From Phyllobates terribilis (lineage: Eukaryota): 64,000 nt of DNA. The stretch spans positions 1,155,742,001-1,155,806,000 of the forward strand of contig NW_027362761.1 in the NCBI RefSeq assembly GCF_046119375.1. The letters run 5' to 3'. This document shows, piece by piece, positions 3,681 through 64,000 of the stretch. The notes beneath the pieces were generated by a model. That model was not told the origin of the DNA and searched no databases. It saw only the letters and a list, made by a program, of their open reading frames with translations. How positions within the stretch are numbered: the first letter of the stretch is position 1; the number at the start of each line of letters is the position of its first letter. Position numbers and translations under genes: made by a program.

Positions 3681-4030
3681 ATTGCAGTCCTTTTAAGGAC
3701 TAGGTTACAGCATTTCCTACGACTTTTATCAGGCAGGTCTGTGCTCTTAAATAGATAGGTTGGGAGTAAAGACTAATTGTAATTGCAGTCCTTTTCAGGA
3801 CTAAGTTACATCAGTTCCTATCAGTTTTTGCAAGGCAGGTCTGTACCAGTGCTGTGCAAGTTTTTTTCACAGCATTTGGCTAAATCTAGCAAAGCTAATC
3901 CTTTTTGGCCTATTGCAGAGTGTGTTAGTCAGTGGAGTAGCCTATCTGTGTTGCAAGCTACACCACCTGTGTATAGAATACCAATTTTTTTACTGCACCT
4001 AGTGAAGTAAAACCTTTTGGGCATAGCATC

Positions 4031-5638: not shown

Positions 5639-5755
5639 AACCCAGACGATAGTTTTGGCCTAATACCACAGTTTGGCCACTCAGCTCTGCTCGGTTCCCA
5701 TCCATTGTTTTTTTGTGCAAACAACTCCAGAGTTGTGAATTAGTTAACCACCAAA

Positions 5756-11345: not shown

Positions 11346-13145
11346 TGTATGGAGTTGTTCAATAAAGGGCCCAAAATTAAGATAACATAGACGGGAGAGG
11401 TCTCAATGAATAGGAATTCCTAAGAATTTGATACCCTGTGAGGGCCAGGCAAAGGGAAAGTTGGACTGGATGGAATCCTGTATGGATTTGGGGAGGGAGA
11501 CATCGAGGGCCTCAGACTTCGCTGCATTGATTTTAAAATTTGACCATGTAACAAAGTGATCTATTTCAGCCATAACAGCAGGGATGGATATATGTGATTG
11601 AGTGATATATACTAGGACATCATCAGCAAATAGAGAGCACTTGTACTCGGTGCCTCCCACCTCAATCCACCTAATATTGGGGTTATGGCGAATTGATGAG
11701 AGCAGGTGCTCCGTGACTAGGATGTATAAGAGAGGGGACAGAGGACATCCCTGCCTTGTCCCATTGGTGATTATGAAAGGTGATGAAAATGTTCTGACGC
11801 GCCCCCTGGGCATTGGGACATCCGGAGCCGGACCCTTTTTGGTGGATGCTGGTGGTTGTAGTCTCCGTGGCGGCGACCCGGTTCCGTGGCTCAGGGTGGT
11901 CACACCAGTGGCGGAACTATTTATGTGGTTTTGATGTTTAAATGTCCGACTACGCCACCCGTGGATTGCGGTCAGAGTGAACCGCCGCTGCAGGGCAGAC
12001 CGCTGGGGCTGGTGTTGTGGGTGCAGCAGAGCGTAGCCTCAGGGCAGTGTATGCGGAGGATGGGGGTGATGGTGCAGGGCAGCAGCAGTAACGACACGGA
12101 GTCAGTGATGCAGTCCAAGGCCTTTACTCACAGTTCTTATTATCCAGACCACTTCTGCAGGTAACGGCTGCCCACGTCTTACTGTGCTCACCAGGTGAGG
12201 GGCTCAGACAACTCCCAGATAACTTTGGAGCGCTTCACAGGAACCCCTTTGTGTGTCCTTTGTCTGGCCTTTCTTACCAACCCTTCTGTCCGGCTGCCTC
12301 GGGCCTCCTCTTGGTAAACTTGGCGCCAGTTTCCCTGACCCTATGTGCTGCCCTCCTAGCGGGTGTAGCGAGGGGCTGCGCCACATAAAATGTCACAGCC
12401 TCCGGTTCCTAGCTGAGGGTCGTTTCCCGCCTCCACTAGTTTCGGGGACCGGTCTCCCCCTTTGGCCTGAGCCCTCCACGCAGGTGGATTCGGGCGTGCG
12501 GTGGCGACTCGCCCGTCCACACCCCTGGGATCCCTTCGTTCCTCGTTCCTGGAGCCTTCTCCGCTCCTCTTCCTTCCTTCTCCCTCTTCCAGGCCTGGGC
12601 CTCTGTTACTAGGCCCGCCTCCGGAGCAGAGCTCATGCAGAGTCCCTGCTCCCTGTCACTTCTGCTCAGACTTCTCTGCACTGAACTAAGATGGTGCCCA
12701 CCTTTTATACTCCCTTCTCAATGCACCCAGGAACTGATTCCTCCCTGCTCCTGCACTACAGGGTTCCCCTTCCTCAGTGTTCCCTCCCCCCACTCCAGCC
12801 AGGGAAAAGGACTGTCGTGCCCATCTCAGGGGCATATTGGTCGCCCTGCCCCACGGCAATGTGGTGTAATGCATGCAGGTGTCGGGTCCTGATCCACACT
12901 CCATCCTTACCTGAGAGTGAGATATCACACCTCTGGGTGAGGTGCAATACCTCTGTAGCAACCGAGCCCTCGGGGTGCTACAGTTCCATTCATCTTCAGC
13001 CTAGGTGACGTATTGCGATACAGGGCCGTGATTTTGGCTATAAAAGGGTGCCCTAGACCCCTACCCCAAGCTTTTTAAGAGAATAATATATGGCGTGCCA
13101 GGAGACTCTATGGAATGCTTTCTCAGCATCCAACGAGAGTATCTA
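11346..13145 (-). pseudogene. L1-clade LINE reverse transcriptase fragment interrupted by a solo LTR
   Basis: LSLDAEKAFHRVSW (~13095-13140), GHPFIAKITALY...MNGT|FSSPF, GTRQGCPLSPLLY, LFADD; the frame is continuous across the LTR. Confidence 0.9.
11795..12982 (-). mobile_element. Solo LTR, same subfamily as 769-2024
   Basis: TGTAGCACCCCG...GGCGCGTCA on minus strand; TSD GTTC (11791-11794 / 12983-12986). Confidence 0.92.
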
Positions 13146-18405: not shown

Positions 18406-19733
18406 TTACAGGAACATGGTCTGATCATACCACATTTCCTGGGCAGGGGAGGAAGTGTGGCGCCCCTGCGGGTCCAGTCGCCACAGAGGTACTGCATCTC
18501 ACCCAGAGGTGTGGTACCCCACTCTCAGGTAAGGAGGGAGCACTACCCGAGACCCACACACCTGCATCCAACACTACACCAGTCCAGACCTGCAGGCGGG
18601 GCAAGATGCATTTGTCCACTGCTGAGCCCTGCCCCTGGCTGGAAGGGGGGGGACCAAGAGACGGGGAACAATGTAGTGGGTGTGGGTGGACAAAGCAGAT
18701 CAGTGGAGCACAGACAGGAAGGGTATAAAAGTCAGAGAGAAACATCTAGAAGGGTTCAGTCCTGCTCAGGAGAGCAGTGCAAAAGGGTCCATTCTCCTGG
18801 CTCCAGTGCTTGGAGCAGGAGTTCAGTTGAGAGAGAGGAGTCGGGCCCAGAGAGAGGCCCAGGAGAAGGAAAGAGAGGAGCAGTGAGGAGGGCTCCAGGA
18901 GAGACAGAGGGGATCCCAGGGGCACAGCGAGCGCAGAGGCCACCTGTGCGCCCGAATCAACACTGACGTGGAGGGATCAGGCCGCGGAGAGGGGACCGGC
19001 CCCTAAACTAGTTGAGAACAACCAGGCTCAGCTAGACAACCGGAGGCTGCTGCATTTTCAAGGTGTTGCAGCCAAAACCCACAATTATATAGCCGAAAAG
19101 GTTGCCGCATAGGGTCCAGGGGACTGAGAGCACGTCGCCCGACAAGGCCCGAGGCCACTGGCTTGGGACACTGATTGTGAGGCGCAGGGCAGGAGGGTGA
19201 GAGCCAGCGCAGTGAGACGACCGGGAAAGGCACATAGAACGGGGTCCCTTTTAAGTGCTCCTGAGGTACCTGAGAGATTGCTGGTTCCCTACCCCGGTGG
19301 ACATAGGACGACGAGGGCGGTCATTACCGGCTGCATCGGTGACCTGCCTTAAACTGTGAGTAAAGCCTGAAGACTGCACCCCACTGAATCCTTGACTCAT
19401 TACTGCGCCACCAGCCCTGCACTACACTGCACAGCAACATCTACCTCATCAAATCATCAACTACACTGCCCTGGAGCTAAGCTCTGCCTGTGGAGAGCTG
19501 AACCAACTCTGCTGCGTCACCACCAGCTCCAGAGGATCTGCACCGCAGCGGCAGCCCCATATAGCCGCATACCACAGGTGGCGTCACGAACATTATCTCT
19601 AAAAACTTTATTCCCCTTTTACTTTCCCTTTAATTGACCGCCCTGGGTCACGGACCGGGTCACTGTCACCGTGATATACCCCAGCACCGACCCGGCTACC
19701 GAGTACCCCACGGCCCAGGGGGTACGTCAAACT

Positions 19734-19751
19734 TGGCGTCAGGAACAGGAT
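19734..19751 (+). promoter_or_regulatory. PBS, tRNA-Ser(CGA) type (1 mismatch)
   Basis: TGGCGTCAGGAACAGGAT 4 nt after the LTR end. Confidence 0.8.
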
Positions 19752-20249
19752 GAACCGACCCGTTACACCGGGTCCTGTGTGCCACAAAGACTGTGTATAA
19801 CTGGATAAACTGCAGCCATTACTGTAGCACATGCGGAGTTAATGATATGTGTCCCATCGTGGGCGGAGCCTCAGAAACGGTGCCAAAATAGGCCTCTCCC
19901 ACTTGTATAGACTGTACCAGAGTTATCTGTCACTCAGGCTGAAAGGTGCCAGCCTTCTCCTTTGCATCAGACTGAAGGGGGAGATTGTCGCCTCCCCCTG
20001 CAGAGGGCTGTGTGATCCCATCTATCCATCTGCTGCAGCCCTGTGCTGTGTGATCCATCCACCCATCCGACAATCCCAGCTGCTGCAGCTCTGTGAATAC
20101 AACACAAGTGTGAGAAGCTGTGCAGCAAGAGTGCAGCTGTACAGTGAACAGCAGAGCAGTCTCGGTGACCGACTGTGCAAGGAGCGACGACATAAGCATC
20201 CGGAGTGGTGAGTCCTACCCCGGCAAGGGTGAACTAGGGGGGGAGAAAG

Positions 20250-20543
20250 ATGCCCAACTTAGGCGAAGCTCCAGCAGAGGGCTCCCCCGCAGCTCCCATA
20301 ATGCCACTGTCTATGCCATACATCCCAGGAGCGGCCTGGTTACCACAATACTCAGGAGAGAGGGGGTGGTACGTGCGTTATGTGCAAAAGGCGAGCTCTG
20401 AGGACATGCCCCTGACTTCTGGTGTTGCTGACCCTGGCCGTCCACAAGGAGCTTCTGCTCCGGCTGCAGATAAGTACCCCGGAGAGAGTAACCTACACCC
20501 GCCACCGTGGAGAACGTGGGTGGAACGCACTACATGTGCATAG
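20250..20543 (+). pseudogene. Deletion-junction ORF: gag-like N-terminus fused to C-terminal strand of a cold-shock domain ORF
   Basis: MPYIPGAAWLPQYSGE (PNMA-type gag-like, from recall) runs into GERGWYVRYVQKASSEDMP, 9/19 identical to GEHGWYALDVHRVFKEDAP of the 58105-59457 protein. Confidence 0.6.
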
Positions 20544-23090
20544 GGTGGTGGAGGAGGAGAGCGTACCCCTACCATCTATGACTGATGAACCGGCTGCGCC
20601 ATCTAGTGGTGGACAAATGTTCCCCTGGAGGGGACACCACTACTGAACTGTTCACTTAAAAGTTAAAAACTGTATATAGTTACCCAGAAGGGTATTGATA
20701 ATCCTTTAAAGAGTTAAAAAAAAGTTTTTGTTTGTTTAGTGTACCCGGTTAAGGTACAAAGACTTATAGGTTGTGGACATTGAACAGCCAAAAAACTTTA
20801 TTTGTATATAGTTAGCACTTCTTAAGGTGCTTCCTGTTGGTTTTCTAAAGACCACTGAACAAAAACCCGTTGGCCAAAGACGTGGTCCAACAAGTGGATC
20901 ACCTATGCCCTGCAGCCACGCCCAGGGTCTACGCTGGGAGTTTTCGAACGGGTCCCTCATGTTGCACCTTTACCAGTGAGATGGATACCCGGTTAAGGAT
21001 CTCACTGTAGCCTGTTGAAAAGTGTTTTATGTGAAAAAATAAAGAAAAATGTTATTAAAAGTGGTTTTATAATGTTTTATATAATGATAGAAACATGTAA
21101 CATTCAAGGAAAGTGCATCCCATAAAGGGAAGAAAAAGTTGTATATTGTTCTTCTATGTGATGCATCTAAAAATTTTGTATGTCTTTAAAATACCTTGTT
21201 TTTACTCTGTTCCAGCCCGCGGACGTGCTGTGTTTAACGGGGGGGGGGAGGGGGGTATGTGGTGCCCCTGCGGGTCCAGTCACCACTGAGGTACTGCATC
21301 TCACCCAGAGGTGTGGTACCCCACTCTCAGGTAAGGAGGGAGAACTACCCGGGACCCACACACCTGCATCCAACACTACACTACTCCAGACCAGCAGAAG
21401 GGTCAAGATGCATTTGTCCACTGCTGAGCCCTGCCCCTGGCTGGAAGGGGGGGAACCAAGAGAGGGGGAACCATTTAGTGGGTGTGGGTGGAGGAAGCAG
21501 TTCAGTGGAGCACAGACAGGAAGGCTATAAAAGACAGAGAGAAACATCTAGAAGGGTCCAGTCCTGCTCAGGAGAGCAGTGCAGAAGGGTCCACGCTCCT
21601 GGCTCCAGTGCTTGGAGCAGGAGTTCAGTTGAGAGAAAGGAGTTGTCCCCAGAGAGAGGCCCAGGAGAAGGAAAGAGAGCAGCAGTAAGGAGGGCTCCAG
21701 GAGAGACAGAGGGGATCCCAGGGGCACGGCGAGTGCAGAGGCCATCCGTGCGCCCGAATCAATGCTGACGTGGAGGGATCAGGCTGCAGAGAGGGGACCG
21801 GCCCCTAAATTAGTGGAGAACAACCAGGCTCAGCTAGACAACCGGAGGCTGCTGCATTTTCAAGATGTTGCAGCCAAAATCCACAATTATATCGCCGAAA
21901 AGGTGGCCGCATAGTGTCCAGGGGACTGAGAGCACGTGGCCCGACAAGGCCCGAGGCCACTGGCTTCGGACATTAATTGTGAGGCGCAGGGCAAGAGGGC
22001 GAGAGCCAGCGCAGTGAGATGACCGGAAAAGGCACATAGAACGGGGTCCCTTTTAAGTGCTCCTGAGGTACCTCAGAGATTACTGGATCCCTACTCCGGT
22101 GGACACAGGACGACGGCCATTACCGGCTGCAGCGGTGACCTGGAACTGCCTTGAACTGTGAGTAAAGATGAAGACTAGAGATGAGCGTTGTTCTACTCGA
22201 ACTGTTCGCCAATCTCAAATTCGAGCTGTTTTGGGCGGTGTTTGAGCCGGTCGGCGAACACGAACAATTTGAGAAAAATTCGGCTGTTCGAGGTTATGTT
22301 CGATAACTGTTCGTGCACCAAAATCATAACTGGATTTTTTCTCAGTAATGATGAAAATTAATGTTAATACGCAGTTTGAGTGTACAGCGGGGCGGGGGGA
22401 GGGGCAGGGGATGGATCTCTGCAGGAACAATGAAGATCTCCATTTTTTTTTCTCTTTCCCGCATTTGCAGTGGGGAGGTGCAATCTGTCAGCCTATCAGC
22501 AGCGCACACACGGAGCAAAGTGCTTTTTTTCACACAAGCAAGGGCATGTGTGATTGGCAGTGTATGTCACATGTCCTTGCCCTATAAGACCAAGCCATTT
22601 TCCCCGTCGCCACCATTTTCTCACTGCTGCAGCTGCGTGTTAGACGGCACCGCTGTTGCTGTGTGCGCTATACCTTGTTAATTTCAAGCCAATTTTCGCA
22701 CAAATATACAGATAGCTTGGGAGTAGGGAATAGTTGTGATTGCAGTCCTTTTAAGGACTAGGTTACAGCATTTCCTACGACTTTTATCAAGCAGGTCTGT
22801 GCTCTTAAATAGATAGATTGTGGGAGTAAAGACTAATTGTAATTGGAGTCCTTTTCAGGACTAGGTTACATCAGTTCCTATCAGTTTTTGCCAGGCAGGT
22901 CTGTGCCAGTGCTGTGCAAGTTTTTTTCACAGCATTTGGCTGAATCTAGCAAAGCTAATCCTTTTTAGCCTATTGCAGAGTGTGTTAGTCAGTGGAGTAG
23001 CCTATCTGTGTTGCAAGATATACCACCTGTGTATAGAATACCAATTTTTTTACTGCACCTAGTGAAGTAAAATCTTTTGGGCATAGCATC

Positions 23091-24588
23091 ATTCTATTAG
23101 TCCATCTATACTGACCTCCATCAGGTTGCAAACTGAATATAATTTTTTTCTGCATCTAGCTCTGAAAAAATATTTGGGCTTCTAGCAGTGTGTGGGACTT
23201 GTTCTATTAGTCCTTCTATACTGACCTCCAGCAGGTTGCAAATTGAATATAATTTTTTTCTGCATCTAACTCTGAAAAAATATTTGGGCTTCTAGCGGTG
23301 TGTGGGACTTGGTCTATTAGTCCATCTATACTGACCTCCATCAGGTTGCAAATTAAAAATAATTTTTTTCTGCATCTAGCTCTGAAAAAATATTTGGGCT
23401 TCTAGCAGTGTGTGGGACTTGGTCTATTAGTCCATCTATACTGACCTCCATCAGGTTGCAAATTAAAAATAATTTTTTTCTTCATTTATCTCTGAAAAAA
23501 TATTTGGGCTTCTAGCAGCGTGTGGGACTTGTTCTATTAGTCCATCTATACTGACCTCCATCAGGTTGCAAATTAAAAATAATTTTTTTCTGCATCTAGC
23601 TCTGAAAAAATATTTGGGCTTCTAGCAGTGTGTGGGACTTGGTCTATTAGTCCATCTATACTGACCTCCATCAGGTTGCTAATTGAATAAAAAAATTTTC
23701 TGCATCTAGCTCTGAAAAAATATTTGGGCTTCTAGCGGTGTGTGGGACTTGGTCTATTAGTCCATCTATACTGACCTCCATCAGGTTGCAAATTGAATAA
23801 AAAAAATTTCTGCATCTAGCTCTGAAAAAATATTTGGGCTTCTAGCGGTGTGTGGGACTTGGTCTATTAGTCCATCTATACTGACCTCCATCAGGTTGCA
23901 AATTAAAAATAATTTTTTTCTTCATTTATCTCTGAAAAAATATTTGGGCTTCTAGCAGCGTGTGGGACTTGTTCTATTAGTCCATCTATACTGACCTCCA
24001 TCAGGTTGCAAATTAAAAATAATTTTTTTCTGCATCTAGCTCTGAAAAAATATTTGGACTTCTAGCAGTGTGTGGGACTTGGTCTATTAGTCCATCTATA
24101 CTGACCTCCATCAGGTTGCAAATTGAATAAAAAAAATTTCTGCATCTAGCTCTGAAAAAATATTTGGGCTTCTAGCGGTGTGTGGGACTTGGTCTATTAG
24201 TCCATCTATACTGACCTCCATCAGGTTGCAAATTAAAAATAATTTTTTTCTGCATCTAGCTCTGAAAAAATATTTGGGCTTCTAGCAGTGTGTGGGACTT
24301 GGTCTATTAGTCCATCTATACTGACCTCCATCAGGTTGCAAATTAAAAATAATTTTTTTCTGCATCTAGCTCTGAAAAAATATTTGGGCTTCTAGCTGTG
24401 TGTGGGACTTGGTCTATTAGTCCATCTATACTGACCTCCATCAGGTTGCAAATTGAATAAAAAAATTTTCTGCATCTAGCTCTGAAAAAATATTTGGGCT
24501 TCTAGCGGTGTGTGGGACTTGGTCTATTAGTCCATCTATACTGACCTCCATCAGGTTGCAAATTAAAAATAATTTTTTTCTGCATCTA
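23091..24588 (+). repeat. 110-bp tandem array (~13.6 units)
   Basis: Period 110 from 23091 to 24521. Confidence 0.97.
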
Positions 24589-24704
24589 ACCCAGCCAATA
24601 GTTTTGGCCTAATACCACAGTTTGGCCACTCAGCTCTGCTCGGTTACCATCCATTGTTTTTTTGTGCAAACAACTCCAGAGTTGTGAATTAGTTAACCAC
24701 CAAA

Positions 24705-27700
24705 ATGAGTGGAAAAAGGCCTGCTGCTGGTGGAAAGGGGAATAGGCGTGTTGGGAAGGGGAAAAAAGGTTGTGTCCGTGGGGTAGGTGCAGAAGAAAGA
24801 CCATCTTCCAGCCAAACTAAAATGTCTACTTCTTTTAGCGGACAATGTGATAAGATCCCTTTCTTACGGCCACGCCAATCGCTACAAATTCCAGATGAGG
24901 CACAAAAACAGCAGGTGCTTCAACGGATATCAAGTGCTCCTTTAAGTGGGCTCTCCTCCACATCAACTTCAACATCACAAATACTCCAGTCCTCAAAGGT
25001 GTCACCCAAATCGCACTTGCTTCCTCACAGCTCCCAAATCTCCAGCTGCCCGTCTGAGTATGAGGTAGAACAGATGGTTGAGTCTGCAGAGCTGTTTACT
25101 CATACTATAGCCTGGGAATCAGAGGTCGACTCCAGCGCTTCTGTGAATCCAGACGAGGAAATGATCTGCACTGATGCCCAGAATCTTTATGAGTCGGATC
25201 CAGGACCAGACGCAGAAGGTTCTGACCATAATGTAGACCCTCATTCCCAAACTGTAACTCCTGTTGGTGGAGACAATGAGGAAGACGATGATAAGACTCA
25301 AATACCTGATTGGAGCGACAACTTTAGTTTTTGTCAGGGCAGGAACAGGTTGGCTCTGAGGACGACGGGTGTGATAACGCACAGGGTGATGATGATGAGG
25401 TCGGAGATCCCACTTACTGTCAACCCACAGTCAGCCAAGAGATGAGGTCAGCAGAGGAGGTGGAGGAAGATGCTAGTGACGACGAGGTCAGGTTGCGCCT
25501 TCCTGGACAGAGACGTAGTACTGGAAGCACGTCAACAACTGCATCCTCAAACACAACTCTGCCTCTCACCACAAGTCGTGGTGGCTCTTCAGGTCGCATG
25601 GGTGCTAAGCCTTGCATAGCCTGGGCATTTTTTCAGATCGATAAAGATGACCCAACTCGTGTTATCTGTAACATTTGTCAGCAAAAGCTAAGTAGAGGCC
25701 AAAAAATACATAGTTTGAGTACTTCATGCATGAACCGGCACATGGACATGAAGCATAAGTTGCAGTGGGAAGCTCAGTGTGCTACAATGCGGCCTAGCCG
25801 GCCGGGCCAACCACCGTCTGCCATATCTTGTGCATCCGCGGCCTCTTCATCCTCTGTGACTGGGGGGACAGCAGTCACACCTGTTTTGGGGCGCAGACCT
25901 GCCACCTCTTTACCCGCAACAGCCAGCGTGATTGGCAGGTCATCATTTTCTTTGGAGGTGGTAACACCAGCTGGTCTTGAGCGCTGTCCGACATCGATAG
26001 CACCACCTTTGGATCAAGGCAACCTAACATGTCCGCCTGCATCTTCCTCACAGACCGGCAGTTTGCCGGGGACACCCTTATCAACCCCGTCTAAGCACAA
26101 TAGCCAGCCCTCGGTCCCTCAGATGTGGACAAGTAAAAGACCATTTCCTCCTAGCCATGAGAAAGCTAAGAGGTTGAATTTCACCATCTGCAAGCTCTTG
26201 GCTACAGAAATGCTGCCTTTCCGCCTGGTGGACACAGAGGATTTTCGAGACCTTATGTCCGTCGCAGTGCCCCAGTACCAGATGCCCAGTCGGCACTACT
26301 TCTCAAAGAAAGGTGTGCCTGTGCTCCACCAGCATGTCGCACACAACATCACCGCTTCTTTGAGAAACTCTGTGTGTGACAGGGTGCATTTCACCACAGA
26401 CACTTGGACGAGTAGGCATGGACAGGGGCGTTACATGTCGCTGACTGGGCACTGGGTAACTATGGTGACAGCAGGACAAGGGGCTGCTGTCCAAGTCTTG
26501 CCGTCCCCACGAGTTGTGCGTCAATCCTCTTTATGTCAAAGTTCCTCCACTGCTTCTGCCTCCTCAACCTCCTCTCGGTCTTCCACCTGCACCCAAAGCC
26601 TGTCTGGTCATGCCACAAGCTTTCTAACTGCGCAGAAGGGATCCTGCACACCTCCTTACTATGCTGGGAGTAGGGCTCAACGTCATCAGGCGGTTTTTAC
26701 ATTGAAATGTCTGGGAAATGTGAGTCACACAGCTGAGGAGTTGTGGTCAGCTCTGGAGAACCAATTTCATGAATGGTTGTCTCCACTGGACCTGAAACCA
26801 GGGAAGGCCGTGTGCGACAATGCTGCAAACCTGGGTGCGGCCCTTCGCCGGGGCAATGTCACACACGTGCCTTGTATGGCTCACGTGTTGAACCTGGTTG
26901 TCCAGCAATTTTTAGCCCACTATCCTAGACTAGATGGCCTTCTGCAGAGGGCACGGTCGCTGTGTGCTCACTTCCGCCGTTCGCATCCCGCAGCTCAGCG
27001 ACTTACATCTCTACAGAAGTCGTTGGGCCTGCCACTTCACCGGCTAAAATGCGATGTGCCTACCCGGTGGAATTCAACTCTGCACATGTTGCAGCGACTG
27101 TGGCAGCACCGACAAGCCCTGGTGCAATACGTTCTGACGTATAGCCTGGGCCAACGAGATTCAGAGGTGGGGCAAATCACGCTGGAGGAGTGGTCTCAGA
27201 TCAGGGACCTATGCACCCTTCTGCACAGTTTTGAAATGGCGACGAAGATGTTTAGTGCTGACGATGCCATTATCAGCATGACTATTCCGGTGATTTACAT
27301 GCTGGAGCACATGTTAAACAGAATTCGGAGTCAGGTGGTGGCACAAGAGGAGGTGGAGGAAGTAGAGGAGGAGGAGTTGTATGCGGAAGGGCTAACATCT
27401 GCAAGGTCCAGACGGTCGGCAGCACCAAGGCGGCAGGCATGTGAGGGTGGGGGAGATGATTTTACCAGGGCGCATGGTAGCAGCCAAACTAGTGAGGAAG
27501 GTGCAGGAGCCCAGGAAGAAGTGGAGGACGAACTGATGGAAGACTCATCAGATGAGGGAGACCTTGATCACATTTCTGTTGTGCGAGGTTGGGGGGAGAG
27601 GACAGAGGAAGGAAGCATGATTGTTACCTCGCCACCAACACAACAGGGACTTGGTGCTCCTGGATGCGCAACACACATGAGTGCCTTCTTGCTGCACTAC

Positions 27701-28383
27701 CTGCAACATGACCCTCGAATTGTGAGAATTAGAAATAATCCTGACTACTGGGTTGCCACACTGTTAGGTCCCCGGTACAAAAGTAAATTTGCAGAAATTA
27801 TTCCTGCCATAGAAAGGGATGCACGCATGCAGGAGTATCAGCAGAGACTGTTGCAGAATCTTACATGTGCTTTTCCACAAAATACCAGTGGTGCACGTAG
27901 TGAATCTCACAGTTCCAACTTGCCAACCGTGGGACCGTCAAGTGTTCAGCACTCAAACCGTAACAGAACCACAGTATCTGCTGGTAACATCAATTTTGCG
28001 GAATCATTTCACCACTTTTTTTAGCCCATCCTTTGCAAGGCCACAGGAGACAAGAAGTCTGACACATAGTCAACGCCTAGAGACGATGGTACAGGAGTAT
28101 CTCCAAGTAAACATTGAAGCCACGACTGTGTCACTGGACCCTTGCTCTTTTTGGGCTTCCAATCTGGATAAATGGCCGGAGCTAGCCACTTACGCCTTGG
28201 AGATCTTGTCATGCCCCGCAGCCAGCGTTCTGTCTGAACGTGTGTTCAGCGCTGCTGGTGGTGTGCTGACATAAGCGCACCCGGCTCTCCACTGATAATG
28301 TAGACAGACTCACGTTCATAAAGATGAACAAATCATGGATCCGAAACGACTTTTCTACCCCTGTGTCATCCTGGGGAGAGTAA
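24705..28383 (+). pseudogene. hAT transposase, frameshifted (three ORF pieces)
   Basis: Near-identical to 5756-9352; -1 in a T-run at ~25330, +1 in a T-run at ~28020, 2-bp deletion giving TAA at 28272-28274. Confidence 0.92.
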
Positions 28384-28711: not shown

Positions 28712-30082
28712 ACTTTTCGATCAACCTTTTCATTTTAATAAAGACCAAAAAAATGGTCATTTTTGAAATTATAAGCATTAGCAGGTTGTTAGAAACTGAA
28801 ATCAAACAGTTTTCAACTCAAAACTTTATTGTAGGTGATGTTACATTTTCACATAGGACCCCTTGTTCGAAAGGAGCTTCTGAACTCTCTCGTCCATTGA
28901 ATTTGTCAGGTTTTGGATGGTTTCTGCTTCAATTGTTTTGCATGAGGACAGAATACCCTCCCAGAGCTGTTGCTTAGATGTGAACTGCCTCCCGCCATCA
29001 TAGACACTCCTTTTAATGATGCTCCAAAGGTTCTGAATGGGGTAGAGGTCAGGGGAGCATGGGGGTCACACCATAAGTTTGTCCCCTTTTATGCCCATAT
29101 CAGCCAGAGATGCAGATGTTTTATGTGCAGCATGAGATGGTGCATTATCATGCAGAAAAATGATCTTGCTGTGAAATACACGGTTCTTCTTCTTGAACCA
29201 TGGCAGGAAGTGCTGTTTGAGAAAATCCACATACATTATGGAGTTCATCTTTAGCGCCTTCAGGGATCCTAAAGGGGCCGACAATCTCTCTCCCCATGAT
29301 TCCAGCCCAAAACATTACTCCACCTCCTCCTTGTTGGCGCTGTAGCCGTGTTTGCGTGGGGTGTCCATCAACCAGCCATCCTCCACTCCATTCATCTGGA
29401 CCATCGAGCGCTGCACGGCACTCATCCATGAACAAAACAGTTTTGAAATCAGTCTTCATGTATTGTTTGGCCCACTGGAGCCCTTTCTGCTTGTGTGCAG
29501 TGGATAGAGAAGGTCGACAGGATGGCGTATGCACAGCTGCAAACCTCTGAAGGACCCTGCATCTTGTAGTTCGGGGGACGTTGGAGGCACAAGCAGCTTC
29601 AAAAACTTGTCTGCTGCTATGACAAGGCTTTTTTGCCGTTGCTCTTTCAACCTGACGTAATTGCCTGTAGGAAAGAGTCCTCAATTTGCCCTTATCAGCA
29701 CGCACACGTGTGTACTGTGAATCAGCTACATACTTCTTGATTGCCAAGACACTTCATCCTGATCATCGCACAATGTTGATTGTAGTCATGCCTTGACCTA
29801 AACACTCCACAATTTGTTGCTTCTCAGCAGCCGACACATCCTTTTTCTTTCCCATTTTGGCAGAAAATGTAGGCTGCTTAATAATGTGAGAGAGCCTTCT
29901 TAAGTAGTCTTGCCTTTCATTGGACACACCTGCCAAACTAATTAGCACAGGTGTCTGCAATTGCTTACAGTGATATAAAGAGCCCTGACACACATCACCA
30001 TCAATGAGTTTAACTGACAAACAAACAAATTCTTCCCTTATCACTCCTAAACACTTTTTGCATAATAATTTGGAACGCGGTG
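28712..30082 (-). mobile_element. Tc1 remnant (copy of 9900-11272)
   Basis: Collinear with copy 1; ORF 29148-29747 is Tc1 transposase. Confidence 0.9.
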
Positions 30083-30154: not shown

Positions 30155-31975
30155 CTGTATGGAATTGTTCAATAAAGGGCCCAAAATTAAGATAACATAG
30201 ATGGGAGAGGTCTCTATGAATAGGAATTCCTAAGTATTTGATACCCTGTGAGGGCCAGGCAAAGGGAAAGTTGGACTGGATGGAATCCTATATGGATTTA
30301 GGGAGGGAGACATCGAGGGCCTCAGACTTCGCTGCATTGATTTTAAAATTTTACCATGTAACAAAGTGATCTATTTCAGCCATAACAGCAGGGATGGATA
30401 TATGTGATTGAGTGATATATACTAGGACATCATCAGCAAATAGAGAGCACTTGTACTCGGTGCCTCCCACCTCAATCCACCTAATATTGGGGTTATGGCG
30501 AATTGATGAGAGCAGGTGCTCCGTCACTAGGATGTATAAGAGAGGGGACAGAGGACATCCCTGCCTTGTCCCATTGGTGATTGTGAAAATGTTCTGACGC
30601 ACCCCCTGGGCCTTGGGACACCCGGAGCCGGACCCTTTTTGGTGGATGCTGGTGGTTGTAGTCTTCGTGGCGGCAATCCGGTTCCGTGGCTCAGGGCGGT
30701 CAAACCAGTGGCGGAACTATTTATGTGGTTTTGATGTTTAAATGTCCGACTACGCCACCCGTGGATTGCGGTCAGAGTGAACCGCCGCTACAGGGCAGAC
30801 CGCTAAGGCTGGTGTTGTGGGTGCAGCAGAGCGTAGCATAACTCCCCACGGGAGGAGTATAGCCTCAGGGCAGTGTATGCGGAGGATGGGGGTGATGGTG
30901 CAGGGCAGCAGCAGTAACGACTCGGAGTCAGTGATGCAGTTCAGGGCCTTTACTCACAGTTCTTATTATCCAGACCACGTCTGCAGGTAACGGCTGCCCA
31001 CGTCGTACTGTGCTCACCAGGTGAGGGGCTCAGACAACTCCCAGATAACTTTGGAGCGCTTCACAGGACCCCCTTTGTGTGTCCTTTGTCTGGCCTTTCT
31101 TACCAACACTTCTGTCCGGCTGCCTCGGGCCTCCTCTTGGTAAACTTGGCGCCAGTTTCCCTGACCCTATGTGGTGCCTTCCTAGCGGGTGGAGCAAGGG
31201 GCTGCGCCACATAAAATGTCAGAGCCTCCGGTTTCTAGCTGAGGGTCGTTTCCTGCCTCCACTAGTTCGGGGACCGGTCTCCCCCTTTGGCCTGACCCCT
31301 CCACGCAGGTGGATTCGGGTGTGCGGTGGCGACTCGCCCGTCCGCACCCCTGGGATCCCTTCATTCCTCGTTCCTGGAGCCTTCTCCGCTCCTCTTCCTT
31401 CCTTCTCCCTCTTGCAGGCCTGGGCCTCTGTTACTAGGCCCGCCTCCGGAGCAGAGCTCATGCAGAGCCCCTGCTCCCTGCCACTTCTGCTCAGACTTCT
31501 CTGCACTGAACTAAGATGGTGCCCACCTTTTATACTCCCTTCTCAATGCACCCAGGAACTGCTTCCTCCCTGCTCCTGCACTACAGGGTTCCCCTTCCTC
31601 AGTGTTCCCTCCCCCCACTCCAGCCAGGGACAGGGACTGTCGTGCCCATCTCAGGGGCATATTGGTCGCCCTGCCCCACGGCAATGTGGTGTAATGCATG
31701 CAGGTGTCGGGTCCTGATCCACACTCCATCCTTACCTGAGAGTGAGATATCACACCTCTGGGTGAGGTGCAATACGTCTGTAGCAACCGAGCCCTCAGGG
31801 TGCTACAGTTCCATTTATCTTCAGCCTAGGTGACGTATTGCGATACAGGGCCGTGATTTTGGCTATAAAAGGGTCCCCTAGACCCCTACCCCAAGCTCTT
31901 TAAGAGAATCATATATGGCGTGCCAGGAGACTCTATGGAATGCTTTCTCAGCATCCAACGAGAGTATCTAATTAC
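30155..31975 (-). pseudogene. L1 RT fragment with solo LTR 30595-31807 (TSD GTTC), copy of 11346-13145
   Basis: Same junctions as in copy 1. Confidence 0.9.
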
Positions 31976-55450: not shown

Positions 55451-57533
55451 AAATGCCCATATGTAGGACTTGCCACCACCACGACCAGACCTTTAGGGCA
55501 CTGTTGAGTCTCTGCCACCAACAACACATGTAGCAACACCTGCTCCCCAGTCCCTAGTTGACCGCAGGAGAAACAGATTTTGGCCACACAATGCCCTTGC
55601 TGTTTATCAGCAAGGCCGACACCTTTTTCTGATTACATCACCTCCCTGACACCCCAATCTGGTCTTGTGCAACACACCATCATCATTATCATCATCCCTG
55701 ACTCAGCTGGCAGTTGCCTCTGTGTGTGAAATGTCCTGAGTTCATTGCCACCTTCCCTCCACCCCTGCTTGATTTCTACCTCTAGATTTGCCCTACTTCA
55801 GAGTGCTACTACCCCTGACAGTGCCCCTACCCCACTGGCCAAACAAAGCCACCAACGCAGCTAAGTGTTTGAATAGTTTCCTTCATGTCTTCAGCCCCAC
55901 ATCATCTGAGTACAAAGGCTGACTGTTCATCTCATACAGTAAATCAACTGTAAGAAGTTGTTGTGAAATGTCTTCTTTAGCCTCCGGGGTGTTATTGATT
56001 ATTCTTATTCTTATTATTATTTTATTTATTTTTAAAGCACCATTGATTCCAGGGTGCTGTACATTTGAAGAGGGTTTACATAAATACATATATAAAATAG
56101 AGTAAACTAACATTGCCGAGATGGTACATAGGGGGAGCGGACGCTGCCCTCACGGGTTTACAATCTAAGGGGTATTGGGGCAGATGGTAGTGAGTTGGCA
56201 GTGAGATTATTTCAGGCTGTAGATGTGACACCCGATAGTCCTCCCTGGGAAATGGGGTTACTCGGAGCCGGGTCAGTGTAGGTGTTACGGGGGATGCAGT
56301 CGTGGCCTAGACCCGTTCCTTGCCCAGGGCAGTCACATAAAAGATAGATGTAATGGGCTTTCAATTAAGAGTGGTATTTTTCGACTACGCCACCTGCGGT
56401 TTCCGGTGATGGGCACCGGCGCTGCTTCAGTCCTCTGAGGCCGGTGTTACGGGCAGCTAAGATGGGACGGCTCCCCACAGGCGGAGCAGGCCTCAGGGCA
56501 GTGTGAGAAGTGATGGTGGGTGCAGTGCCGCGCAGGAAATAATGAGCTGAGACGGTGTATGAAGTCATCCGGGTCTTTACTCTACTCACTTGGGATGATC
56601 TTTCAGCCACAAAGCTTCTCTCTGCTACTCGCGGTGTACTGCGGCCACCGGGAAGGGGGTTCAGCACTTTTCAGGTAGATCAGGAGCACCTGTCGAGACC
56701 CCGCTGGTGTGTGTTCCTCTCCTTGGTAGGTTGTTCTCCCACTAAGTCTTCTCCTGACTGTGTGTGGTACGAACGTGGTGTAAGGCCGGGTCCCACTGGA
56801 TAAACGCAGTGTAAGAGATACAGGTGGCGTAGGCCACTCCGTCCGTATCCCCTTGGGATCCACTAAGCCTCCGGGCTTTTCCGACTGAGACGTGAAGTGA
56901 CAAAGTCAGATATCGGGGGCTGTTCACCCCTCTTGCAGCAGGAATCCCTCTGACTAGGCCAGAGTAAAGAATACAGGTGGCGTAGGCCGCTCCGTCCGTT
57001 TCTCCCTGGGATCCTTTTGCCTGTGGAGCCTATCTCCTCTGCTCCCCTCCAGGCCTTCTTAGGTAAGGACCTTGACCGGGTAGAGACAGTGGTTAACTCT
57101 GACCCACTCCCCGTCTCAAGACCAGAGAACGAGGACCGTGTATCTCCAGTCGGCTGCGGCCTTATGCTGGACTCTGGCGGGTGACTACAATCAGAGACGA
57201 AGACCACAATCACAGACGAAGATCACAATCAAAGACCTTGAACCTAAGATGGCCGTAGATTAAATATGAAACAATATGTGTTTCCTAAAAGTGTGTCCAC
57301 CACCCTCACCCACTACATGGTTCCCCCTATCTTTTGGTTCCCCCCATCCCCTCTATCCCAGGCCGGGGCAGCACCCTGGTGCATTTAGGCCCCCTACAGG
57401 ACAGGAGTGGTGTAGTGTTGAGTGGTGAAGTGGTGTCCTGAGAGATGCTCCATCCTTACCTGGAAGAGGAGATACCACACCTCAAACTGAGGTGCAGTAC
57501 CCCTGTGTAGACTGAACCCTCAGGGGCGCCACA

Positions 57534-57542
57534 TTCCCCCCC
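57534..57542 (-). promoter_or_regulatory. Polypurine tract
   Basis: GGGGGGGAA on element strand abutting the 3' LTR. Confidence 0.85.
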
Positions 57543-57671
57543 GGTGAAACACAGCACGTCCGCGGGCTGCAACAGAGTAAAGAGTTGGTACAGACATTCA
57601 ATTTTTAAAAGTTTTTGTAAACATGAAAAATTCTTCCCTTTATGGGAGGTTAGGACACTTTTAACGTTGCA

Positions 57672-57709
<38 letters not shown>

Positions 57710-58104
57710 AATATAGAAAACATCAAAGAGACATTATGCATGTATGGAAGACATTATGCATATATGGAAGACATTCAGGAGACATTATGCAAGCAGACAG
57801 TTCTGTAGAAAATACGGTAGAAAGTGTCAGTTCCCTCAACGTAGGCCCTGGGGTGGCTGCAGGGCCTGAAGATCCCGAGTTGGACCTCCAGTAGAGCCAC
57901 TCCAGACCGGTTTTGCTTCTGAGGTCTGAGGTAGAAGTGGTTTTGCATAAAACCAATAGGGAGCACCTAAATAGATGCAAAACTATATACAAGAATGAGT
58001 CTGTCTTCTGCCAGTGTCCGCAGGGACAAATGTCTCTCTTAACAGAAATCCGGGAAAAACAAGGAACAGTTTAAATGAAGGGGAGATTCATCTCCCGGGG
58101 TTGC

Positions 58105-59457
58105 TTAAAAGTGGTATCCCCACCGGGAAAATGGCTCATCTTTCCCGACGGAGCCTGACCGGTCCTCTGTGGGCAGGTGAGTGGGGGCATCCTCCTTAAA
58201 TACCCTGTGGACGTCCAGGGCATACCACCCATGCTCCCCATGGTGGCGGGTGTAGAACACCAAATCGCCCGGGTAGAGGTTCCGGCCAGGGTGGCCCAGC
58301 TCCAGCCGCTGCTCCACGTCCCGCCGGTTCACAAACACGTCCCGGTCGAACTGTGGGCTGCGGATGAAGCCCCATCCTGCCACCTGGTGGAAGCACACAA
58401 TGGCGCCTTCTTCCCGGGGGCTTGGACGAGTGGCCTCCGCCTGACGGGCCTGCGCTTTTGCAGCCTTGGCGCGCACCTCCAGGCGCTCGCAGCGGACCCG
58501 CTTCTCCCGTCGCTCCTTTTCAAACTGGAGGAGTTCCTTTCGGCACGTCTCCTCCCGCCTCCGCGTTTCGGCTTTGGTTTCCCGGGGGAAGCCCATCAGG
58601 TCGCCCCCCCGGTTATCCCAGGCAAACTCCTCTGCCGCCGGGCAAGCGACTGATGGCGCGGGCAGCAGCAGTAACGGGGGTTGCTGCGTGTGCTCTGTGG
58701 ATGTGGCCCAGTCCGGGTTGGGGCAGGTGGACACCCAGGTCAATGCAGGCACTTCCGGTTCGGGGGTCGAGAGGCATAACAGGTCCCCGACTGTGGCGGT
58801 GGCTTGGGCCTCGGCCTCTGGAGCCAGGAGCTGTTCCCACACAACGGCGCCCGGGGATAGGGGTGCCGGCAGGAGGCTTAGGAGGGCTTCGGTGCGTTCC
58901 GCGCCCAGGATAGGGGTTTTTGCCTTACCCGCACTTGGGCTGCACGGGGCCTCCTGGGCTTCCTCCGCCTGGGCTGGAGCCTCACTTGTTAGGTGCGACA
59001 AGCTCTGGCGGCGGTCCCGGATCCTTCGCAACACATCCTCCCTCCACTCTGCGGTGGCCAGTCGCTGGGCCTCTGCGACCTTCCGGGTCAGGTCCTGCGA
59101 TTCACCACGGAGGAACTCGGCCTCCTCCGCGGTCAGGTGGATTCCTTCCATACCGAGGGAAATAGCAGCAGGTGGGCCAGCGACGGGGGACTTCTCCTTT
59201 GCTTCTTCCATCTTGGCTGCTGGGTGCGGTCTCTTTCTCCTCCTTCTTTTGGGGCGGCTCCAGGGCGGCTGGCTGACGGGCACTCCTTGGGACGCCCCAT
59301 CCGTCTTGACGGACACTACTATGCGGACTGTCTCTGATGGAGGGGGCGGTCTGCTCTTTTGGCGCCATTGTGGAGCCAGGCCCACGATGGGAGGACTTTG
59401 GTTGCTGTTGCTTTTGCACATAATGGCGTCCGTTCTTTTTGGGCTGCGCCACTTCAA
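58105..59457 (-). CDS. Coiled-coil plus cold-shock domain (OB-fold) protein, up to 450 aa; start codon uncertain (first ATG ~59421, or GCCAAGATGG at MEEAKEK)
   Basis: ~58201-58415: EGAIVCFHQVAGWGFIRSPQFDRDVFVNRRDV...LYPGDLVFY...GEHGWYALDVHR has RNP1-like GWGFI and RNP2-like DVFV motifs at CSD spacing; two charged helical stretches upstream. Confidence 0.8.
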   Translation of the reverse strand: MKWRSPKRTDAIMCKSNSNQSPPIVGLAPQWRQKSRPPPPSETVRIVVSVKTDGASQGVPVSQPPWSRPKRRRRKRPHPAAKMEEAKEKSPVAGPPAAISLGMEGIHLTAEEAEFLRGESQDLTRKVAEAQRLATAEWREDVLRRIRDRRQSLSHLTSEAPAQAEEAQEAPCSPSAGKAKTPILGAERTEALLSLLPAPLSPGAVVWEQLLAPEAEAQATATVGDLLCLSTPEPEVPALTWVSTCPNPDWATSTEHTQQPPLLLLPAPSVACPAAEEFAWDNRGGDLMGFPRETKAETRRREETCRKELLQFEKERREKRVRCERLEVRAKAAKAQARQAEATRPSPREEGAIVCFHQVAGWGFIRSPQFDRDVFVNRRDVEQRLELGHPGRNLYPGDLVFYTRHHGEHGWYALDVHRVFKEDAPTHLPTEDRSGSVGKDEPFSRWGYHF

Positions 59458-59542
59458 GTGTGAAATGACAGTCTTTTTGTGTAAAGGCGCACAGTACCCG
59501 TCGGCAATGGGGGTTATTCTTTTCCGTTGCTGCGGGCACGCG

Positions 59543-59560
59543 ATCCTGCCGACTACGCCA
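59543..59560 (-). promoter_or_regulatory. PBS complementary to tRNA-Ser(AGA/TGA) 3' end
   Basis: Plus strand ATCCTGCCGACTACGCCA, 18 nt, 4 nt from the LTR end. Confidence 0.88.
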
Positions 59561-62500
59561 AGTTTGTGACACCCGATAGCCCTCCCTTGGAAATGGGGTT
59601 ACTCGGAGCCGGGTCAGTGTAGGTGTTACGGGGGATGCAGTCGTGGCCTAGACCCGTTCCGTGCCCAGGGCAGTCACATAAAAGATAGATGTAATGGGCT
59701 TTCAATTAAGAGTGGTATTTTTCGACTACGCCACCTGCGGTTTCCGGTGATGGGCACCGGCGCTGCTTCAGTCCTCTGAGGCCGGTGTTATGGTCAGCTA
59801 AGATGGGACGGCTCCCCACAGGCGGAGCAGGCCTCAGGGCAGTGTGAGAAGTGATGGTGGGTGCAGTGCCGCGCAGGAAATAATGAGCTGAGACGGTGTA
59901 TGAAGTCATCCGGGTCTTTACTCACTTGGGATGATCTTTCAGCCGCAATGCTTCTCTCTGCTACTCGCGGTGTACTGCGGCCACCGAGAAGGGGGTTCAG
60001 CACTTTCCAGGTAGATCAGTAGCACCTGTCGAGACCCCGCTGGTGTGTGTTCCTCTCCTTGGTAGGTTGTTCTCCCACTAAGTCTTCTCCTGACTGTGCG
60101 TGGTACGAACGTGGTGTAAGGCCGGGTCCCACTGGATAAACGCAGTGTAAGAGATACAGGTGGCGTAGGCCGCTCCATCCGTATCCCCTTGGGATCCACT
60201 AAGCCTCCGGGCTTTTCCGACTGAGACGTGAAGTGACAAAGTCAGATATCGGGGGCCGGTCACCCCTCTTGCAGCAGGAATCCCTCTGACTAGGCCAGAG
60301 TAAAGAATACAGGTGGCGTAGGCCGCTCCGTCCGTATCCCCCTGGGATCCTTTTGCCTGTGGAGCCTATCTCCTCTGCTCCCCTCCAGGCCTTCTTAGGT
60401 AAGGACCTTGACCGGGTAGAGACAGTGGTTAACTCTGACCCACTCCCCGTCTCAAGACCAGAGAACGAGGACCGTGTATCTCCAGTCGGCTGCGGCCTTA
60501 TGCTGGACTCTGGCGGGTGACTACAATCAGAGACGAAGACCACAATCACAGACGAAGATCACAATCAAAGACCTTGAACCTAAGATGGCCGTAGATTAAA
60601 TATGAAACAATATGTGTTTCCTAAAAGTGTGTCCACCACCCTCACCCACTACATGGTTCCCCCTATCTTTTGGTTCCCCCCATCCCCTCTATCCCAGGCC
60701 GGGGCAGCACCCTGGTGCATTTAGGCCCCCTACAGGACAGGAGTGGTGTAGTGTTGAGTGGTGAAGTGGTGTCCTGAGGGATGCTCCATCCTTACCTGGA
60801 AGAGGAGATACCACACCTCAAACTGAGGTGCAGTACCCCTGTGGTGACTGAACCCTCAGGGGCGCCACATAGACTTTACTGAAGAGATGTGTTTTCACTT
60901 TGCATCTGAAGATTTAATTGTGGAAGACAATTGGATGTGCTGAGGCACTGAATTTCAAAGGATGAGGAATGCTCGGGAAAAATCTTGGAGGCGATCGGAA
61001 GAGGAACGTACGAGGTAAGAGAGAAGGAAATTTTGTGAGGACTAGAAATTACATGGTGGAAGGTATTGGGAGATTTGTGGAGGAGACAGATTATGGATAG
61101 CCTTGTAAATCATTGTTAGAAGCTTAAACAGAATTTGTTGGAAAATTGGAAGCCAGAAAAGAGATGGGCAGAACTGGAGGAATAGAGAGGAGAGAGGTGG
61201 ATTAGTCGGGCACCAAAGTTAAGGATGGACTGGAGAGGTACGAGAGTTAGTTGGGAGGCCACAGAGGAGGATATTGCAGTAGTTGTGGTGAGAGATAATG
61301 AGCGCGGCACTAATATTTTAGTAGATTTAGGGTTGAGGAAAGGATGAATTCTGGAATTTTTTTTGAGTTGGAGGCAGCATGAGGTGTTAAGGACTTGTAG
61401 TTTGAAGGACAGGGCAGAGTCAAGAATTACTCTGAAGTGATGGACTTGTAAAATAGTGTAAAGTGTGATGTCATTTCCTGTGATAGATAGATCAGTTAGG
61501 GGGTTTGAGTGAGATGGAGGAAGGATGATGAGTTTAGTTTTGTTCACTGAGTTTTAGAAAGCGTGATGAAAAGGAGGATATGGCTGATAGACACTCTGGG
61601 ATTTTGGACAGCAGAGAGGTGACATCTGAGTCAAAGAGGTAGATCTGAGTGTCATCAGCATATAGATGGTACTCGAAGCAATGGGACTATCCCAGACCAA
61701 AGGTATAACTTGAGAAGTGTAGGGGTCCCAGGATAGAGCCTTGAGAGGCACCAACAGAGCGGGATGAGGAGGTAGTATGGGAATGGGAGATGCTAAGTGT
61801 GCGGTTAGTGAGGTATGAGGAGATCCAGGAGAGGTCAAGATCTTTGAAGGGAAGACAGGATCTGTAGCAGGAGGGAATGGGGAAATGTGGGAAAAACAGA
61901 TAACACATCTAGGTGAAGGAGTACAGAGTATTGTCTGTTAGGTTTGGTAGTTAAAAAGGCATTTGAAACTTTGGTTAAGGCAGTTTCAGTGAAGTGGTAG
62001 GGATGGAAGCCGGGTTATAGGTAGTTGAAGAGTGTGTTGGATGAGAGGTGGGAGGAAAGTTCAATGTGAACATGTTCAAAGAATTTTGGGGTGTAAGGGA
62101 GTGGGAATATGGGGCGATGGCTGAACATAGGGATTGGGTCAAGGGATGGCTTTTTCAGGCTTTTTTTACACAAGAGGTTAATGATGAGTTGAAGAGATGG
62201 GTAATGGCTAGGATAAGCAGGATGGTGAGGTTGGGGAGGAGGTGGGAAGGGATAGAGTCAAGCGCACAAGTGGTGAGGTGTGATTTGCAGTGAAAAATAG
62301 AAAACTTTTCTTCACTAATGGTGGGAAAGAAGGTTATGGGAGAAGGACAAAGGTCTGTTATGCAGAGGGGTTGTGGTGGTTGAACATTAAAACTTTTTCT
62401 AATGTGTTCGATCTTGTTTTTGATATGTGCGTCAAGGTCTTCTGCTGAAATAAGGGGAGGGGGACGGTGGACGGAGGAGAGAATTAAAAGTGTTGAATAA

Positions 62501-63102: not shown

Positions 63103-64000
63103 TGTGGCGCCCTGCTGCTCATGGGTGCCACAGAACCCAGTAGGGTGCATGGATGGATTTCTCCACAAGAGGCCCTCACACATTCACACACCTCCACCCT
63201 ACCACCTCAGACCACCAGAGGGAGCCCCTGTTAGGGATATAAATACTGGAGGGTAGAATTAGGTAGTCAGAGTGTGCTGACGCTAAGAAATCAGTGAAGA
63301 AGCAGCACGCAGGCTGCTGTGCTTAGACGAGCCAAGGCCTACAGCACGAGTTGAAGCCTAGTGAGGGCCCTGAGTGTGGCCGAAGGCTAGAGGGGAGAGG
63401 AAGCAACGAGGGGGCAGAGGAGCGTACCAGGCGCACCCCGAACTATACACCGGACACCGGGTCCGTGCCTACGGGGCCCCTTTATACCCAGTAGTGACCA
63501 CCGGATACCTGGAGGACTACAAGTCCCAGGTTGACCAACATTGACTACCGTACCAGGGCTAGGAGTCACGGAGGCCCCAGCGACCAGGGAGAGTGATCTC
63601 CAAGAGAAGGCCCTACCACCGGGTCAGCAGGTGCAAGAGAGAGAGACAGTAATAAAGCCAGGCCTAGCTCCAGGTAGGTCAGAAGCTTAGCAAGTGAAAG
63701 CAAGGGATCAGGAGGCCCTATACCCGCTAACTGGGGAGAGTCCAGAAGTGCACCCTGCGTACCGAGTACCCTGGACTATACCTGCATCTACACCAGTAAA
63801 GGTACCGAAGCGAACCCCCGTGTGAGTGTCTGTCATTTCTCCCTGAACCGTCCTGGCCGTCTCTCACCTGTTCCACCATCCATTCTACCACGCTGCCCTG
63901 AGGCCCGCTCCACCTGTGGGGAGCCGTTCCATCATAAGGTGCCCTAACATCTGCCTCAGAGGACTGTCGTAGCGCTGGTAATCCTTACCAGGCACCGCAG
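63103..64000 (+). mobile_element. LTR of the same Gypsy lineage, runs off window end
   Basis: TGTGGCGCCC start; TATAAA ~63238; CAGTAAAG ~63794; GCTGCCCTGAGGCCCGCTCCACCTGTGGGGAGC block shared with other LTRs. Confidence 0.8.

Follow-up and report, generated by a model that had tools for sequence, protein, structure and literature searches.

Structure of the element

A long terminal repeat (LTR) retroelement whose only gene encodes a protein with a cold-shock domain (CSD) lies on the reverse strand of a 64,000-nucleotide stretch of the Phyllobates terribilis genome (contig NW_027362761.1, positions 1,155,742,001 to 1,155,806,000 of the forward strand). The whole of this stretch is referred to as the window, and coordinates are given in its own numbering. 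The 5' LTR (59565–60869; 1305 nt, TGTG...CACA) and the 3' LTR (56224–57533; 1310 nt) both have TG...CA termini, and their alignment over 1305 bases includes 20 mismatches and one 5-nt indel, corresponding to 98.5% identity. The pair is enclosed by a 4-bp target-site duplication (TSD), TAGA, at 56220–56223 and 60870–60873. The primer-binding site (PBS; 59543–59560, 18 nt) begins 4 nt past the 5' LTR and has the same sequence in an autonomous Gypsy element; it is putatively assigned to tRNA-Ser. The polypurine tract (PPT) GGGGGGGAA (57534–57542) abuts the 3' LTR and is preceded by a 20-mer (57550–57569, the pre-PPT motif) which is diagnostic of the CSD elements. The interior of 2031 nt contains a single conserved open reading frame (ORF; 58105–59421), followed by a non-coding block (57833–57991), a candidate cis element that is about 69–78% conserved in divergent CSD families and for which a comparison with the Gypsy helper described below gave no match. 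With paired LTRs, TG...CA termini, TSD, PBS and PPT all present, this is an LTR retroelement, as structurally complete as a preliminary description of this DNA had proposed. It is not an autonomous member of the Ty3/Gypsy group (Metaviridae), in which gag is found together with pol (protease, reverse transcriptase (RT), RNase H and integrase).

The reading frame is open for 497 codons from stop to stop. The 450 codons of the preliminary description begin at a TTG, whereas the ATG at 59421 is the start that the subfamilies have kept in common; from there the ORF specifies 438 amino acids plus the stop codon. A Pfam search identified a CSD alone (E value 2.4e-4, 21.4 bits, cut-off 27 bits) and no gag, RT or integrase family, in agreement with the earlier account. 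The cut-off is passed by four of nine relatives; the score is 36.8 bits at locus L205 and reaches 46 bits in further copies. An antisense frame of 374 codons (58445–59569, forward strand) is regarded as a shadow of the real frame because it has third codon positions in common with it and gives no Pfam match. The single match returned by an Rfam search (E value 0.91) was taken as chance.

The AlphaFold2 model obtained with a nine-sequence alignment shows a long helix and, after it, a barrel of five strands (pLDDT 87.5). When the predicted CSD was submitted to Foldseek, every listed match was a cold-shock domain, with E. coli CspA giving a TM-score of 0.90 and a root-mean-square deviation of 1.9. 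The top matches in the ESM Atlas, which provide a lead only, were CSD clusters with scores of 0.76–0.78. A PDB search with the window CSD as a single sequence gave nothing meaningful; a profile search did find matches. In the full-length predicted model two long helices are confident. Helix 1 (aa 98–142; 58996–59130) has a heptad-like hydrophobic pattern by eye, while helix 2 (aa 283–330; 58432–58575) is rich in Arg and Glu and continues into the CSD (aa 336–406; 58204–58416), an oligonucleotide/oligosaccharide-binding (OB) barrel of five strands. The remainder of the model is of low confidence, and disorder is predicted for about 60% of the protein. The C-terminal CSD claimed at the outset is thus supported by Pfam matches in relatives as well as by the predicted fold. 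Both of the charged segments described ahead of it as probable coiled coils are predicted to be helices, and their pairing as coiled coils is conjectural; the helix-1 dimer prediction, at 0.02 against a mark of 0.32, speaks neither for nor against pairing.

Copies, families and age

The genome searched comprises 10.6 Gb. From 58,570 candidates obtained with the ORF, 94 full-length matches (77–100% identity) were scored, a sample in which the best-scoring copies are over-represented; by our own count, 51 of these have no internal stop and 43 do. The same LTR was present on the 5' side in 29/29 other loci examined, and on the 3' side as well in 23 of them. The ORF is accordingly multi-copy and LTR-flanked. 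It is not a single-copy, processed copy of a host gene, an origin considered earlier, and the host CSDE1 domains score no higher than 10.6 bits with the element profile. The pre-PPT 20-mer occurs at 37,169 sites with no more than one mismatch (control 1), and approximately 37,000 internal copies of 4.6–5 kb would amount to roughly 170–180 Mb, or 1.6–1.7% of the assembly, by our own arithmetic and with solo LTRs uncounted.

The window element represents one subfamily, family A, of a superfamily of CSD elements which have neither gag nor pol. In families B and C, at 31–45% protein identity, the same start, the two helices and the CSD are retained, as are the PBS and the pre-PPT motif. Family A is older, the LTR pairs of 18 loci being 90.7–97.9% identical, which places the window copy (98.5%) among the youngest of its family. 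Family C is very young, with pairs at 99.2–99.9% in 6/6 copies. The named homologous proteins are all from poison frogs (Phyllobates, Ranitomeya, Anomaloglossus), from which nothing is concluded about absence elsewhere, and the matches listed in a full-length profile search, limited to 8000 candidates, include at least two proteins, both from poison frogs. The viral contigs searched contained neither a PBS match nor a protein relative, and the metagenome contigs gave three short, weak matches. At locus L205 of family C, contigs of three runs, which belong to a single study and whose type is uncertain, cover 30/30 bins including the flanks, RNA and DNA being inseparable in these data.

Family D, a further CSD element without pol, was examined in one full copy (locus L234, 2495–6398 of G000:C3:357748600-357757500). 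Its LTRs of 816 nt are 98.5% alike and unrelated to those of families A–C and of the helper, the TSD is 5 bp, and the PBS is of the same type. The one frame of 669 codons lies partly within the LTR and has a charged helix ahead of the CSD. The unrelated LTRs and the 5-bp TSD suggest either that the helper was exchanged or that capture took place twice. A peptide from the related locus L233 had 150 genome matches scored. In three public gene models (P0002, P0003 and P0111) the element ORF is joined to DNA-transposon transposase domains; these fusions are probably annotation artefacts.

Selection on the reading frame

Ratios of non-synonymous to synonymous divergence (dN/dS) were estimated with the Nei-Gojobori method among 22 intact ORFs which passed a motif filter. 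The preliminary description had pointed to this comparison among copies, and the ratios proved to be far below 1. In the young family C they are 0.04–0.08 for the CSD, 0.07–0.09 for helix 2, 0.13–0.29 for helix 1 and 0.4–0.5 for the linker. In family A, where decay since insertion contributes noise, they are 0.32 for the CSD and 0.28 for helix 2. In 7/7 pairs tested there are more synonymous than non-synonymous changes (Fisher p 8e-7 to 1e-24). Only the ORF frame is both stop-free and constrained, the other frames having stops and, the shadow frame aside, ratios near or above 1. Family-C copies have diverged by less than 1% since insertion, yet dS among them is as high as 1–2, which dates the constraint to the time when the lineages were replicating. 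A single protein, consisting of two helices and a CSD, has been retained by selection during replication, and of this we are all but certain.

Strong purifying selection on the part comprising the helix and the CSD means that the ORF is not passive cargo. A passive insert, or a decayed remnant of gag or pol without function, might have been suspected from the window copy, which by itself scores under the Pfam cut-off, and from the extent of predicted disorder (~60%). This explanation is largely refuted by dN/dS values of 0.04–0.09 and constraint specific to one frame, and by a start, helices and CSD that are conserved at 31–45% identity across families. Moreover, a profile comparison of the CSD ORF with the Gag and Pol of the helper revealed no homology (probability 0.2% and 0.1%, respectively), and we give the explanation next to no credence.

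In the first 45 codons (window 59287–59421) dS is low, 0.2–0.7, against values of 1–2 or saturation in helix 2 and the CSD. This suggests an overlapping RNA or DNA signal, or recombination.

Signals shared with an autonomous Gypsy element

The PBS 18-mer has 69,769 exact sites genome-wide (0 for a reversed-pattern control). Of the first 30 along contig C1, CSD-type sequence follows in 16 and gag/pol in 14. The latter type, here called the helper, contains RVT_1, RNase H, Integrase_H2C2 and rve in the order RT, RNase H, integrase, together with a PNMA-like gag. The helper has 4-bp TSDs, lacks a CSD in 14/14 elements, and is young, with LTR pairs at 98.2–99.9% in the 12 of 14 that have a clean pair. 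Its own pre-PPT motif is found at 32,070 sites, and the pre-PPT counts of CSD elements and helper together (69,239) are near the PBS count, the mismatch settings of the searches being different.

The results from pairwise comparison indicate that family C and the helper share 70–89% identity from U5, the 5'-unique part of the LTR, through the PBS and into the leader (89% over 469 nt between L207 and L201). Family A matches the helper at 66% over 323 nt or in short stretches only, with 66–71% in U5. Neither U3, the 3'-unique part of the LTR, nor coding DNA is shared. An 11-nt PBS-like repeat in U5 of the window element (59724–59734, reverse strand, 170 nt before the LTR end) is present also in family C and in the helper, at 158–175 nt from the LTR end. 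When family-A LTR–PBS junctions were sampled, 14/14 entered the CSD ORF and none entered gag (493 such sites). Judged by the shared PBS, U5/leader and TSD length, the element is a non-autonomous partner of this Gypsy family, closely related in these signals for family C and distantly for family A. The initial proposal that it was mobilised in trans held up.

Two chimeras with a helper 5' part and a satellite 3' part were found, one at locus L169 and the other in the window (18456–21495, forward strand, extending further at its 3' end). The latter is an older relative, with LTR segments 92% alike, in which a helper-type gag start (20238–20399) is joined to a CSD ORF tail (20482–20640). Such chimeras would be expected if templates had switched between co-packaged RNAs. 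The context of the ORF start in the satellite resembles repeated motifs of the helper leader. A PNMA-gag Gypsy, represented by the 30 best PF14893 loci, was also considered as helper and rejected; these loci had no shared LTR or PBS.

Proposed mode of replication

We propose that the CSD element is a Gypsy satellite, mobilised in trans, whose selected protein binds and favours its own RNA. The satellite RNA would carry the primer site of the helper and a helper-like U5/leader, from which copying by helper Gag-Pol would follow; that the RNA is packaged, reverse-transcribed and integrated by helper Gag-Pol is strongly inferred from these sequences and in our judgement very probable. The newly made protein would bind the RNA that encodes it by means of the CSD and the Arg-rich helix, much as LINE-1 ORF1p, and might then shield this RNA or bring it to helper particles as they assemble. 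Such protection or delivery would allow intact copies to out-replicate copies without the ORF. A diffusible protein, in contrast, would permit ORF-less copies to cheat, and long ORF homology is kept at 14/16 of the CSD-type PBS sites sampled on contig C1, which speaks for a benefit in cis. We infer that the protein benefits its encoding copy, most simply through binding of its own RNA. Taken as a whole, the chain from helper-mediated copying to own-RNA preference is a working model whose prospects we place a shade short of even.

Several points weigh against this model. Broken copies were excluded from the dN/dS set and the pairs within it are not independent, while selection confined to a small number of master loci, or operating in cells that express a single copy, could mimic action in cis. 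The 30-site PBS sample covers the first 4 Mb of one contig and is not random. A close partner helper for family A itself was not found in these comparisons, the young helper reaching merely 66–71% in U5. The binding surface is a further concern. According to passages of PMC7498358, W65, F74, F85 and H87 of YBX1 are four stacking residues with a role in nucleic-acid binding. The residues at F74 and F85 are kept in the element and Y72 is replaced with W, but the position of W65 holds K, R, C, A or D and that of H87 holds N, T or A in 15/15 aligned sequences. Because both equivalents are replaced, canonical binding of single-stranded RNA may be weak or changed, and the RNA chaperoning envisaged in the preliminary description is to be regarded with the same reserve. 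The full aromatic surface of RNP1 and RNP2 (W65, F74, F85 and H87) is absent from the aligned element sequences, and by its predicted fold the domain is a CSD with an altered binding surface.

Loss of the W65 and H87 aromatics in all 15 sequences could also mean that the fold has been repurposed. The protein would then be an adaptor or competitor binding helper Gag or a host silencing factor, with nucleic-acid binding secondary or lost, and a helix 2 that is constrained as much as the CSD would suit this role. However, the replacements are mostly basic or polar, as befits contact with nucleic acid, and the RNP1 and RNP2 Phe positions along with several Arg, Lys, His, Trp and Tyr surface positions are nearly invariant in the 15 aligned sequences. 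We regard a repurposed fold as unlikely.

Regions that the satellite does not share with the helper raise the possibility of a family-specific trans-activator, comparable to Rev/RRE or to the CERV protein of Cer1, in which a nuclear protein would recognise U3 or the 3' block of CSD elements and boost transcription or export. Both U3 and this block (57833–57991) are satellite-specific and conserved, whereas U5 follows the helper, and family A has a basic run at aa 56–64 that resembles a nuclear localisation signal. In addition, CSDs bind single-stranded DNA besides RNA, as stated in part of PMC7498358, and CERV, described in PMC10309623 as an RNA-export protein of an LTR retrotransposon, provides a precedent. 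Yet the basic run is not well preserved from one family to another, and a diffusible activator would be a shared good, for which dN/dS below 0.1 in separate lineages would be harder to maintain. A trans-activator is therefore doubtful, though it has more than a slight chance of being correct.

The superfamily might represent a class of protein-coding satellite retrotransposons that has persisted for long, an LTR equivalent of those viral satellites that depend on a helper. In this class a captured and retooled CSD on a charged helix would act in cis for access to helper particles. Its members would exchange U5/leader sequences with Gypsy helpers and change between them, would match or outnumber the helper, and would contribute appreciably to poison-frog genome size. 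The unrelated LTRs, the 5-bp TSD and the CspA match of family D would reflect such changes of helper. This wider picture is offered tentatively, with the weight of probability against its being correct in full.

Origin of the cold-shock domain

Compared with solved structures, the CSD profile of families A–C scores 41.3 bits with YBX1, 39.4 and 35.4 bits with bacterial Csp, 24.1 bits with CSDE1 and 23.1 bits with CARHSP1, and YBX1/YBX2 are the best sequence matches in this set. Family D is closest among solved structures to E. coli CspA (E value 7.5e-5), with YBX behind it. In a CSD tree of 31 rows and 72 columns, a branch with values of 64/86, not starred, separates the element CSDs from the rest; the base of the tree is unsupported and its sole YBX row is a long-branch pseudogene. 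A Y-box origin of the element CSD is only weakly favoured.

The match to YBX1/YBX2 could also indicate a protein that serves the host or restrains the helper, by masking or titrating RNA in the manner of Y-box proteins for the germ line, or by dampening the helper, with selection acting via the host. Xretpos, a pol-less Xenopus element, is reportedly developmentally active (PMC4585706, in part). Against such a role, copies decay after insertion, internal stops being present in 43 of the best 94 matches. Constraint is seen between recent insertions of different lineages, as expected for selection at the time of replication and not for fixed host genes. Selection through the host is consequently very unlikely.

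Relation to known elements

Helper-dependent elements that keep LTR, PBS and PPT include the oncogene-transducing defective retroviruses, TRIM/Cassandra, MaLR and ETn. They may carry host-derived sequence, and in most cases the cargo does not code for protein, derives from Gag or is short-lived. The satellite differs in encoding a non-Gag protein which has diversified to ~30% identity under selection. LINE-1 ORF1p combines a helical segment with an RNA-binding RRM fold, has been proposed to prefer its own RNA, and belongs to a non-LTR element with an autonomous partner, ORF2; its likeness to the satellite protein is a functional analogy only.

The preliminary description, drawn up without a literature search, knew of no CSD-encoding LTR retrotransposon. 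Such elements are already in print: passages of PMC12287698 describe a CSD (pfam00313) in 46 bird endogenous retroviruses (ERVs), captured several times and suggested by the authors to be of viral benefit; a CSD within an LTR element is therefore not new. Like the satellite, these are LTR retroelements carrying a CSD, but they are Retroviridae by RT and the position of the CSD varies (PMC12287698, same passages), whereas in the satellite the CSD protein is the sole gene and the helper is a Gypsy. The satellite is present in tens of thousands of copies with purifying selection measured, while those passages on bird ERVs (PMC12287698) report no selection test. The Xenopus laevis elements 1A11, Xretpos and lambda-olt 2-1 are, as described in part of PMC4585706, LTR elements with one ORF and no homology to pol, and in being pol-less, single-ORF frog elements they resemble the satellite. 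The description in the same part of PMC4585706 sets them apart: 1A11 encodes what is called a Gag-like protein, the elements number in the tens to hundreds of copies, and a CSD is unmentioned. The CERV protein of Cer1 from C. elegans is likewise an additional LTR-retrotransposon protein that is neither Gag nor Pol, and acts on element RNA. It is produced from a spliced mRNA of an autonomous element, with a CSD unmentioned in the abstract of PMC10309623, in contrast to the non-autonomous satellite. In the literature searched, including the main text of poison-frog genome papers and with Repbase and Dfam outside its scope, no report was found of a satellite that encodes a CSD protein alone, is under selection, has reached high copy number and can be paired with a helper.

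Non-autonomous LTR elements normally shed their coding sequence, and a single non-Gag protein kept at dN/dS below 0.1 implies that a satellite can gain from a factor of its own. The pair of elements provides a natural system for the study of cis preference and of satellite–helper competition among LTR retrotransposons, and a selection test now stands behind the recurrent acquisition of CSDs among retroelements, as described for bird ERVs. For annotation, this is a sizeable repeat that lies beyond the reach of RT-based classification and appears in gene sets under the labels 'uncharacterized' or 'CSD domain-containing' protein.

Other sequences in the window and genome

Five diverged pieces (70–85%) of the same LTR superfamily lie in the window at 795–1978, 2455–2797, 11947–12982, 30747–31800 and 63873–64000, and are probably solo LTRs or old copies. 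Elsewhere in the genome, locus L211 (G000:C1:734443600-734449900) contains an intronless sequence interrupted by a LINE (long interspersed nuclear element), which we take from its translation to be CSDE1-like, and locus L218 contains a decayed CSD whose translation is presumably Y-box-like. By eye, two near-identical long frames in the window (5744–9352 and 24693–28024) resemble hAT transposases; a 110-bp tandem array stands ahead of each (3922–5762 and 22982–24712). Fragments of a LINE RT (11403–12038) and of a Tc1-like transposase (29148–29753) were likewise recognised by eye.

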